From positions 61,008,001 through 61,072,000 of the forward strand of contig OX597825.1 in assembly GCA_951406725.2 (NCBI GenBank): a stretch of 64,000 bases of DNA, written 5' to 3'. The position numbers and the translations under genes were made by a program. Below the pieces are notes generated by a model. The model ran no database searches. It had not been told where the DNA came from and saw only the letters and a list, made by a program, of their open reading frames with translations. Source of the stretch: Octopus vulgaris (lineage: Eukaryota). This document shows positions 41,123 through 45,464 of this stretch, one piece after another; position 1 is the stretch's first letter, and every line of letters starts with the position of its first letter.

Positions 41123-41330
41123 AAGGTAGAGAGCTGGCAGAATCGTTAGTAAGCCGGGTAAAATGCTTAGAGGCATTTGTTTGTCTTTACGTTCTCAGTT
41201 CAAATTCCAACGAGGACAAGTTTGCCTTTCATCCTTTCGGGGTCGATAAAATACGTATTAATTGAACACTGGAGTGGATGTAATCAGCCTATCCCCAAAA
41301 TAGCTGGCCTTCTACCAAAACCTGAAATCA
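41123..41330 (+). mobile_element. Nin/Deu-domain-like SINE
   Basis: TTTGCCTTTCATCCTTTCGGGGTCGATAAAA. Confidence 0.85.
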
Positions 41331-41997
41331 TTATTAATGTTATTATTATTATTATTATTATTATTATTATTATTATTATTATTATTATTATTATTATTGC
41401 TGTTGTTGTTGTTGTGGTTGCTGTTGTTGTTGTTGCTATTATTATTATTATTATTTTTTTTATTATTATTATTATTATTATTATTATTTTATTAATATTA
41501 TTATTATTATTATTTTATTATTATTATTATTATTATTTTTGTTGTTGTTGTTGTTGTTGTTGTTGTTGTTGTTGTTGTTGTTGTTGTTGTTTTTGTTGCT
41601 GTTGTTGCTGTTGCTATTATTATTATTATTATTATTTTTATTATTATTATTATTATTATTATCATTATTATTATTATTTATTATTATTATTATTATTATT
41701 ATTATTATTATTATTATTATTATTATTATTATTATTATTATCATTATTATTATTATTTATTATTATTATTATTATTATTATTATTATCATCATTATTATT
41801 ATTATTATTTATTATTATTATTATTATTATTATTATCATTATTATTATTATTATTATTATTATTATTATTATTTATTATTATTATTATTATTATTATTAT
41901 TATTATCATTATTATTATTATTTATTATTATTATTATTATTATTATTATTATTATTATTATTATTATCATTATTATTATTATTTATTATTATTATTA
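41330..41997. repeat. Long (ATT)n/(GTT)n array, 3' flank of the Dong-like element
   Basis: Directly visible. Confidence 0.97.
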
Positions 41998-43794
41998 CTT
42001 TTTTTTTTTTCTTCTTTCAAATTTTCTTCCATTTCTTGCCGAGTGTCTTCCCGACTCCTAGGGCAAAGAAACTCATAGTGTATATTGGTAGGCCATTAAA
42101 CCAAACTCAGAAGTTCGTTCATTTTTTTTTTTTTTTTTAAAGTTAGATTAAAATACATGAGCAGCAACAGTTCTCACATCGACAATGCTCTTCTCAATAC
42201 GTGTGATGTACCAGTTAAGACAATCTTTTGCACTTCTTGCAGGGATGGTAAGCCAGGGATCATTCTCATATAATTTTCGGTTCCCTTCTTGATCATTCCT
42301 AGTGCTCCTACGATCACTGGTATTGTAACCGCCTTGAGATGCCACATTTTCTCAATTTCAATGAGTAGGTCTTTATATTTTCTGAGCTTGTCAAACTCTT
42401 TCGCAGAGATATTATGATCACAGGGGATGCTCATGTCGATCAATAAGCAAACTTTATTGTTTTGGTCTTTCACAACAATATCTGGTTTATTGGCCTTGAT
42501 GGTTCGGTCTGTATGTACTGGAAAGTCCCACAGAATGGTTACATTTTCTCCTTCAGTTACAGCCTCAGGGTGGTGATTATACCACTTGTCGGCAGTTTTG
42601 ATATTGTAATGCCGACTTATTAGCCAGTGGAGATATTGGCCAACTCTGTCATGTCTTAATTTATACTCCACTGGTGCTAAGACTTTACATCCAGAGATTA
42701 GGTGGTCCACTGTTTCAATCATGTCGTTGCAGAATCGGCATTTTGGGTCTGCTCCATTTTTCATCACATTGGCCTGGTAGTTCCGGGTTAATAGGCTTTG
42801 GTCTTGAGCAGCCAGGATGAAACCTTCGCTCTCTGCTTTTAGCCCTGAGCTCCGCAGCCACTGATGGGTTTGCTTCTGGTCAACATCAGCTTGTTTGCTG
42901 CGGGTCACATATTTGCCGTGCAGAGGTTTCTCCTCCCACCTATCAGCCAATTGCTCGTGCGCTTTTTTCATTGCCATCATTTTCACCTTCTTTGCAACAA
43001 TAGTTGCCGTACTTCCCTCGGGTTGTTCAGTTTGGGTATCCTGCACGAGATCAATAGCAAATTTTTTGCTTTCCTTGATGATAGAATGAAGCTTCTTTCG
43101 TCTCTCGTGATTTTCCACGAGCTTTAGCATCCAGTCATTCGATATTTCGAGATATTTGGCCAGTCCAATTGTGGTTGTTTTGTAAGCTAGTTCAAATTGG
43201 ATCAGGCCTCGACCTCCTTGGGCTCTGGGAAGGTAAAGGCGATCTACGTCTGCCTTTGGGTGGTGCATCCTATTACAACTCAGCAGCTTGCGTATTTTTC
43301 TATCTATATTCTTTACTTCACTCATATTCCAGTTCAACACATTGTAGCTATAATTAACAACTGGAACTGCTAAGGAATTTATAGCTAACACCTTGTTACG
43401 TGCATTTAGTTCAGATTTCAGGACTGCACGAACTCTCCTATAACATTCCTTCCTGATTTTCTCTTTCATGCTTGCATGCTGAATACCAGAGCCTTCATTT
43501 ATCCCTAAATATTTGTATGTCTGTTCTTGCTCAAGCTCTCTTATGACTGTGTCAACATCTAACACGACTGAATTTGTGGTCTTCACTTTCCCTTTCTGGA
43601 AAGTGGCCTTGGCACACTTCTCAAGTCCAAACTCCATCCCGATGTCATCGCTGAATGCTTTCACGGTGCGCAATAGGCCTTCAAGTTCATTATTGTCTTT
43701 ACCATAAAGTTTTAAGTCATCCATATAAAATAGATGGCTCATTTTTTTATTGGCAATTTTATACCCATACCCTGTTCTGTTTAATTCACTTGTA
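41998..43794 (-). mobile_element. 5'-truncated R4/Dong-clade site-specific non-LTR retrotransposon in (TAA)n
   Basis: ORF plus ~175-nt 3' UTR containing CCCTAGGAGTCGGGAAGACACTCGGC and an A-rich end; (TAA)n on both sides on the element strand. Confidence 0.92.
42174..43794 (-). CDS. RT C-terminal half, CCHC zinc knuckle and restriction-like endonuclease (partial, ~540 aa, uninterrupted)
   Basis: SHLFYMDDLKLY; IGMEFGLEKCA; YKYLG; RLYLPRAQGGRGL; CRFC-ETVDHLISGC; KPDIVV...LIDMSIP...KLRKY. The tracked start at 43838 lies in the ATT repeat and is spurious. Confidence 0.93.
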
Positions 43795-44153
43795 ATTATT
43801 ATTATTATTATTATTATTATTATTGTTATTATTATCATTATTATTATTATTTATTATTATTATTATTATTATTATTATTATTATTATTATTATTATTATT
43901 ATTATTATCATCATTATTATTATTATTTATTATTATTATTATTATTATTATCATCATTATTATTATTTATTATTATTATTATTATTATTATTATTATTAT
44001 TATTATTATTATTATTATTTATTATTATTATTATTATTATTATCATTATTATTATTATTTATTATTATTATTATTATTATCATTATTATTATTATTATTA
44101 TTATTATTATTATTATTATTATTATTTATTATTATTATTATTATTATTATTTT
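43795..44153. repeat. (ATT)n array, 5' flank of the Dong-like element
   Basis: Directly visible. Confidence 0.97.
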
Positions 44154-44316
44154 ACTTCTCAGAGCTCTCGGTCTTACTTGCTCTGTCTGATTCTGTGAGA
44201 GCGGACCGAAACATGTTGTCAGGGGTTTCACGAGGTCTCCGCAAACTATAAGCTTTCTTACCTGGTTCTTAACTTATCGTAGAAGACACTCAACACCCAA
44301 GCACCGATTTCAAAAT
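44154..44316 (-). mobile_element. Extreme 3' fragment of another probable R4/Dong family
   Basis: Minus strand ILKSVLGC* (cf. ILRRVLGI*, VLRRALSM*), then ~135 nt with hairpin potential, then (TAA)n. Confidence 0.55.
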
Positions 44317-44373
44317 GTTGTTGTTGTTATTGTTATTATTATTATTATTATTATTATTATTATTATTATTATT

Positions 44374-44921
44374 GAGTGAGCGAGCAGAGCATGCCATCAA
44401 AGTGACACTGGGGTAAAATATACGAAGCCCAGTATACCCATCATGACTACCCGTCTGATAAGGGTACACCAGGTACATGCATCACAACCATATGTGCGCG
44501 ACATGGTGATCTCATATCAAGATAAACAGCACATGACCTTGCAGGTGGAGCCCAGTTAGAATTTTCTTCAGATCGAGTAACCCATCCCGCTCAAAAGGTC
44601 CCTGAATAAGGGTTGTTTAAGGACGTTGAACGAAACACCCATGTTTCCAGAGGTGAATTATTCAAACCCCAAAGAATCCTTCTCAACACATGGCTATGAT
44701 GCTCCCCCACTACTTCTGCTCATGATCAGAGATGCACATATCGTCAGCCACTAAGGGACATGCTCAACTGGTTAAGGTCAAACAACTGACAAGCAAATCT
44801 GTGGTATTGAGCAGAATATTTGCTGTAGCCCATCTTTTATACCAAGACAAAACAATGTACATGATAACACTTCCAATCAGTTAAGATCAGAAGCGACGAG
44901 AGCCACTGCCTGGTACTGCAT
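44374..44921 (-). mobile_element. Family C element, near full length, between (TAA)n arrays
   Basis: Reverse-complement match to 30505-31051; lacks the first ~6 nt. Confidence 0.9.
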
Positions 44922-45464
44922 TTATTATTATTATTATTATTATTATTATTTTTATTATTATTATTATTATTATTATTATTATTATTATTACTATTATTAT
45001 TATTATTATTATTATTATTATTATATTATTATTATATTATTATTATTATTATTATTATTATTATTATTATTATTATTATTATTATTATTATTATTATTAT
45101 TATTATTATCATCATCATTATTATTATGATACGAATGTCACTCTAATGATGCTTATTCCGAAATACTATTATGATAGTTGATATCATCGTTAACGTAACT
45201 TCGCCCATTATCCATATAATTGAGTATATATGTATCTGTGTTTATATCTTTTTCTAATTGGGTAACTATAATAGCAATGCATTTATTACACGAAAGAGTT
45301 TCAAGTATTACCCAAGTTGACATCAATATTATTAATTAAATTTGATGATATAACAGTGAACGGAAAGTAAGTATTTAATTTCATAAACGGGTTACTCACT
45401 GACAACGTTCCACTAAAACTGATACACCCATGAATACCTGTCATCAAGAATGATCTAAATTGAA

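Follow-up and report, generated by a model that had tools for sequence, protein, structure and literature searches.

A (TAA)n microsatellite of Octopus vulgaris with same-strand insertions of Dong-like retrotransposons and a short non-coding family

Dong retrotransposons have been reported to target (TAA)n microsatellites in insects, molluscs and cnidarians (PMC7998251, PMC3812793), and the Bombyx mori Dong self-cleaves at its 5' junction and carries a 5' ribozyme resembling that of hepatitis delta virus (HDV; PMC3774820); these and all later reports are cited from excerpts. Dong-R4 elements have expanded in coleoids (PMC8967140), and an annotation of Octopus vulgaris counts 51 Dong-R4 families (92.7 Mb), with five recently active families and 1129 young insertions; the excerpted text does not treat their insertion targets (PMC13282606). 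Here we describe a 64,000-bp stretch of the O. vulgaris genome (contig OX597825.1, positions 61,008,001 to 61,072,000; hereafter the window), in which a (TAA)n microsatellite at 41330-45125 probably received three insertions on one strand: a young Dong-like element (D1), an older Dong-like 3' end (D2) and a copy of a short non-coding family (C). Since TAA targeting by Dong is already published, such a stack is an expected outcome, and the Dong-TAA part is ordinary by itself; the addition is family C.

An earlier note on this DNA, made from its letters, had described co-oriented elements separated by (TAA)n tracts. Re-reading the coordinates, the open reading frame (ORF) and the pieces bore out both the order and the common orientation: from 45125 to 41330 the minus strand reads (TAA)n, family C, (TAA)n, D2, (TAA)n, D1, (TAA)n. 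The features of the stack, and the short interspersed nuclear element (SINE) below it, are as follows.

44922..45125, minus strand: (TAA)n tract T1, the 5' flank of family C
44374..44921, minus strand: family C copy, non-coding, 548 of about 557 bp, the first ~9 nt missing; it shares 99% identity with the other 39 top copies
44317..44373, minus strand: tract T2, (AAT)n(AAC)n
44152..44316, minus strand: D2, a 165-bp Dong-like 3' end, consisting of the last 8 codons (ILKSVLGC-stop) and untranslated region (UTR)
43795..44151, minus strand: tract T3, with 4 copies of a private unit, AAT-AAAT-(AAT)3-5-GAT
41996..43794, minus strand: D1, a young, 5'-truncated element without long terminal repeats, encoding reverse transcriptase (RT) and restriction-like endonuclease (RLE); ORF and 3' UTR
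41330..41995, minus strand: tract T4, with 5 copies of the private unit, and tract T5, a mix of AAC and AAT
41121..41327, plus strand: SINE A, tRNA-type, with A box at 41135 and B box at 41198

The stack is genuine. That separate repeat copies were misassembled through their TAA tracts is hardly credible: long TAA tracts are hard to assemble and no contig from four sequencing runs spans the stack, but every kind of junction in it recurs at many loci, run X15 yielded low-depth contigs that agree with the outer flank on either side, and the private motif that flanks D1 would be hard to obtain by joining unrelated loci.

D1 has the layout of a Dong element, with a single ORF encoding RT followed by CCHC and a PD-(D/E)xK restriction-like endonuclease. 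Its unbroken ORF (43793-42174, 539 aa, with UTR to ~41996) covers the end of the RT (RVT_1), CCHC, RH and a PD..K..Y endonuclease, and a full-length copy elsewhere (L097) contains a single 1258-aa ORF (RVT_1 E 1e-29). Residues C41, C44, H53, C58, R69, H70, P126, D127, K158 and Y162 are invariant across 58 aligned sequences. In the full ORF, a KWTREEY motif near residue 108 looks Myb-like; Pfam gave no match there. The C-terminal endonuclease is predicted to adopt an R2-like fold: the model (pLDDT 95) best matched R2Tg (Z 18.7, root-mean-square deviation 2.7, 203 aligned) and R2 8ibw (Z 17.0), the next row reaching only Z 8.0. D1 thus resembles the R2 protein (PDB 9dou, 8ibw) in endonuclease fold and in RT (E 3e-28), but differs from it in that identity is only 16-17% in the endonuclease region, in having YMDD instead of the FADD of the aligned R2Tg, and in that R2 targets 28S rDNA. 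A sequence search of the PDB with the truncated D1 ORF found no match.

In an RT tree of 36 rows, D1, other octopus families (D2, D3, D5, D6) and distant old fragments grouped with 20 YMDD-type homologs from louse, butterflies, shrimp and killifish, apart from two other RT fragments (support 97/99). The R4/Dong-like elements are described as including one from Pediculus (PMC7998251). As the tree was built from these rows, with no named R4, Dong, NeSL or HERO sequence among them, the placement of D1 in the R4/Dong clade is strongly supported but not proven. Set beside B. mori Dong, DongAg, DongBg and ostracod Dong1/2, D1 is alike in its single RT plus restriction-like endonuclease ORF and its (TAA)n target. 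No difference was apparent, save that simple descriptors, run without a positive control, gave no convincing fold of a 5' HDV-like ribozyme in D1, D3 or D5. The best 40 copies of the D1 3' part are 98-100% identical, so D1 is a young family. The best 40 matches of D2 after the self hit are only 79-84% identical, which suggests that D2 inserted earlier than D1. The earlier note had taken D2 for an R4-like 3' end, correctly: longer copies carry a broken Dong-like ORF and lie on a separate branch of the RT tree.

All of these families end in (AAT)n, and an alternative that the earlier note had itself raised is that TAA is only a 3' tail, the upstream tracts resulting from priming on, or survival next to, earlier tails or from later slippage, without sequence-specific nicking. 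Truncated copies decide between target and tail, because an upstream tract cannot be the own tail of a truncated copy. Among 35 D1 copies with distinct start points, picked on body similarity without use of the flanks, 31 had (TAA)3 within 60 nt of the 5' junction and none had TTA, compared with (TAA)3 in 0.63% of 20,000 random 36-mers. Three of the 4 exceptions have rearranged 5' pieces, and the remaining one is the reference copy itself. TAA also preceded 48 of 53 full-length C copies, whereas a control family, SINE E, had it upstream in 1/102 flanks (TTA in 0). Moreover, insertions were found within the internal TAA run of another repeat, F (L249, L288, L019). Pairing of the RNA tail with a nicked strand could by itself yield the polarity, and the 5' signal is weak in old lineages (see below); even so, we consider the tail-only explanation very improbable, and the results support TAA as an insertion target, beyond being a 3' tail, for both D1 and C. 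Specificity could stem from the nick or from tail pairing; the data fit either.

The stack itself bears on this point. The private unit, present in T3 and T4 on either side of D1, was found in none of the other three tracts of the window, in 0/131 tracts sampled elsewhere and in 0/107 other loci. Its presence on both sides therefore argues that D1 split an existing tract, and D1 likely inserted into a pre-existing TAA microsatellite; this also speaks against a mere tail.

To place these observations on an unbiased scale, we sampled 100 evenly spaced 10-kb tiles, which contained 28 C pieces and 37 Dong-like pieces (kept of 40 tblastn pieces, three RT-only hits of at most 28% identity being dropped). 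TAA was found in the 45-nt upstream flank of 18/28 C pieces, including 9/17 truncated ones, and TTA in none. We further classified 131 tracts of at least (TAA)5, oriented to read TAA, with a repeat library in which embedded SINE pieces were masked. The element 3' of the tract lay on the same strand in 24/25 cases for Dong and 15/15 for C, and 62 of the 131 tracts touched a Dong or C copy. Of 28 pairs of neighbours no more than 1 kb apart, 25 were on the same strand (p=3e-5). Dong was also present in 9 of the 17 C tiles, more than expected (p=0.011). The proposal that several Dong-like families and C share one strand-specific TAA target therefore holds genome-wide in the junction and tile counts.

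Several observations qualify this. Dong or C occupied both sides of one tract in 16/131 cases, not significantly above marginal rates (Fisher p=0.09), although the same-strand clustering for which the earlier note had proposed a test was recovered in neighbour pairs. Five C pieces in tile L159 are probably local tandem duplicates, which inflates the pair counts. In addition, the older lineages D2 and D4 have a weaker 5' TAA signal than D1: at least 4 TAA in 36 nt were present at 12/28 visible D2 junctions, and TAA is missing upstream of both D4 fragments of the window.

Family C is a full element of ~557 bp with a fixed 5' end and variable 5' truncations. Its copies range from 77 to 99.6% identity, and the best 40 of 2004 candidates were full-length copies at 99-100% identity; from these values C is young and was recently active. 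Per Mb sampled, the tiles gave 28 pieces of C with a total of 9.1 kb, or ~80,000 pieces in the genome by an extrapolation that is loose since the counts are clumped (C plus Dong per tile, variance 1.42, mean 0.65). No frame in C exceeds 59 codons. The idea that C is the 3' UTR of a longer long interspersed nuclear element (LINE) was ruled out, because full-length copies share a single start point behind TAA and contain no longer frame. Neither did C qualify as a tRNA-, 5S- or 7SL-derived SINE, for which we looked for an RNA polymerase III (pol III) head or homology to an RNA gene: there is no B box consensus and a lone A-like match at position 87, and in an Rfam scan no family came close to its gathering score. 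ARAGORN is uninformative here, as it detected nothing in C and equally nothing in SINE A or F loci. Two descriptors of HDV-like ribozymes found none in C, nor in D1, D3 or D5. C folds better than shuffled sequences (z -3.4).

A loose end in contigs of the four sequencing runs had hinted at a longer partner sharing the 5' half of C, which turned out to be a miniature inverted-repeat transposable element (MITE) with an internal C piece. This MITE is ~480 bp long with imperfect inverted ends of ~115 bp, and the C piece (C positions ~104-273, 75-95% identity) was present in 30/30 loci (L211-L240), taken from 351 exact 22-mer hits in the genome; those inspected were without TAA flanks.

What mobilises C? 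C shares the target, polarity and reverse-transcription signatures of Dong. Its 3' junction reads AATAAT in 42/50 copies, as in 14/17 D3 and 7/7 D6 copies, and at the 5' junction 5/53 C copies carry the initial ~20-30 nt of the element repeated in tandem; repeats of this kind were counted by eye in 9/20 full-length D3 copies. No other recurrent coding family in TAA polarity was found among 834 tract flanks. Because of this shared behaviour and the elimination of other coding families, a Dong protein is the likely mobiliser of C in trans.

At the sequence level C had no match among the sampled families, and this weighs against Dong. C had no significant similarity to four long Dong copies or to the 3' UTR in any of 24 clusters of Dong-like ends; in a comparison with 18 Dong family ends, the lowest shuffle p of 0.022 lost significance once the 18 tests were taken into account. 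The Dong families D1, D5, D6, D7, D9 and D10 have in common a 3' UTR hairpin ~54-73 nt from the 3' end, a candidate protein-binding signal. The hairpin covaries strongly across these distant families: its inner helix is 97% paired with 23 double changes (0/500 shuffles), as computed on 11 sequences from which the structure had itself been picked. A model built exclusively on Dong hairpins gave C a score of just 9.2 bits (E 0.024 for 569 nt and E 3.6 for 87 kb) and missed the D3 positive control, and the two candidate hairpins of C begin 91 and 41 nt from its end. The stem of its last hairpin is 96-97% paired in 77 copies, with almost no compensatory changes. A descriptor that fits this hairpin and several Dong ends is not counted as evidence, having been designed with C already in view. 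A 5' hairpin common to D1 and C was also discarded, the L101 start being a truncation point. The earlier view of C as a parasite of Dong thus stands as regards target, polarity and junction style, but without shared sequence.

The lack of a match leaves room for another mobiliser, Dong targeting being as described above. This could be a TAA-preferring enzyme of a LINE or Penelope-like element absent from our sample; alternatively, C would be a remnant, of the type of the short internally deleted elements (SIDEs), of a Dong lineage that is extinct or was not sampled and with which it has its ends in common. C has no homology to the sampled Dong ends, the 51 annotated families (PMC13282606) exceed those sampled here, and R2 SIDEs retain recognisable parent ends (PMC3414825). 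We nevertheless regard this explanation as unlikely: C copies are 99% alike, so that the partner was recently active, the 834 flanks held no other recurrent coding family in TAA polarity, and the junction register and 5' repeats of C match those of D3 and D6.

A Dong-mobilised C compares as follows with described non-autonomous elements. R2 SIDEs are the nearest parasites among known elements. Like these and R2/R1 hybrid SIDEs (PMC3414825), C is short and non-coding, shares the target of a site-specific LINE, has a fixed 5' end and no pol III head. SIDEs, which are rare, use the machinery of site-specific LINEs and retain the parent's 5' ribozyme and 3' UTR in recognisable form (PMC3414825), whereas for C no homology to the sampled Dong ends could be detected; its target is a dispersed microsatellite, and by extrapolation its pieces number tens of thousands. 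It resembles the tRNA-derived SINEs of molluscs in being non-autonomous, very abundant, within 200-700 nt and ending in a microsatellite tail (PMC4824008, PMC11481361), but lacks a B box and any Rfam match. In the main text of a survey of bivalve SINE partners, as excerpted, the word Dong is absent. Our literature search, with Repbase, Dfam and the Zenodo library of PMC13282606 outside its scope, found no Dong-mobilised SINE or short element and no description of family C; C may be among the 893 young 'unclassified SINE' families of that annotation, as excerpted.

SIDE-like products were seen in family D3, where 3/20 copies with intact 5' ends (L284, L287, L288) are internally deleted at differing breakpoints, ~800-1000 bp of the 5' end being fused to the last 250-470 bp. 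Direct junctions between families without TAA were also seen, a Dong ORF piece joined to a D1 5' UTR and part of a D3 ORF close to an old fragment of C (L254; L028 2618-2425), which are possibly template switches.

All together, we think there is a good probability that the stack is a (TAA)n microsatellite that received three same-strand insertions, the old D2, the young D1 and C, likely by target-primed reverse transcription, with C likely relying in trans on the protein of a Dong element. After a nick in the TTA strand by the endonuclease, the (UAA)n end of the RNA would pair with that strand, and the new copy would again be bordered by TAA on either side, ready for a further insertion. At this locus, the tail of SINE A would have expanded first; D2 would then have inserted, the downstream tract would have expanded with the private unit, and D1 would have split it. 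C would have landed upstream; C and D1 cannot be ordered, because both are young.

Many of the pads themselves would come from other repeats. The earlier note had overlooked the opposite-strand SINE A below the lowest tract; T5 is continuous with its (ATT)n tail, and many pads abut or lie inside SINE-type repeats. In the sample, SINE A touched 30 tract sides, 29 of them in opposite polarity, and its 5' flank contained (TTA)3 in 13/94 cases and (TAA)3 in 0/94. SINE A, with 179 hits in L111-L210, favours TTA polarity on either side and is also found as tandem copies linked by ATT runs, a mirror image of Dong polarity; its body may resemble the Meta domain. The SINE-like repeat F has an internal (TAA)n(CAA)n run, which accounted for ~9 tracts in the sample and hosts D1, D3 and C insertions (L249, L266, L267, L288, L019). 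Repeat G, in one copy of which we found no ORF, ends in ATT runs and abuts TAA tracts in opposite polarity (4 tracts: L134 6349, L152 7255, L187 8984, L201 646). We infer that many pads are supplied by SINE A flanks, in opposite polarity, and by the internal run of repeat F; Dong tails may also lengthen short seeds beside SINE-type repeats.

The other features, in the window unless a locus is named, are as follows.

30180..31051, plus strand: second site, with the 3' part of a C copy, (AAT)n at 30442-30491 and a full C copy at 30502-31051
12774..13405, minus strand: third site, with a C 3' tip (13405-13324), (AATAAG)n and a D4 fragment (13291-12774)
59981-60382, minus strand: second fragment of D4, a distant Dong-like lineage, with a (CTA)n(TAA)n tail
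12063-12654, 29582-30110 and 53642-53999: tRNA-type SINE family B with a (GAA)n tail, the copy at 29610 preceded by (AAC)n
25761-25973: 30-bp minisatellite, ~7 copies
L117 8925-9170 (minus strand), L121, L130, L164 and L171: copies of repeat F

At the second site, two family C copies joined by (AAT)n had been claimed near 30181-31051, and this is what we found, both being 85-86% identical to the stack copy. The third site (13407-12771) had been described as a C end and a TAA-like tract preceding an R4 fragment: the C end does precede a Dong-like fragment, but this example is the weaker one, as the spacer is (AATAAG)n and not TAA, and the (TTC)n at the end of the fragment is the tail of a repeat on the opposite strand.

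A broader picture, to which we give somewhat less than even chances, is that C is a very successful parasite of Dong elements that lacks both a pol III head and a tail derived from Dong, and that its (UAA)n end, or a structural mimic, is what allows it to be recognised. C would belong to a two-polarity system, in which SINE A and repeats G and F lay down ATT/TAA runs that Dong and C colonise, with about half of the longer TAA tracts touching Dong or C. Being abundant and recently active, C provides a natural experiment on how relaxed an RLE protein is in the choice of its RNA, and such selectivity bears on the use of R2-like enzymes for cargo insertion. For this genome, the 62/131 tracts in contact with Dong or C mean that TAA microsatellite markers and repeat annotation will be confounded by these families.

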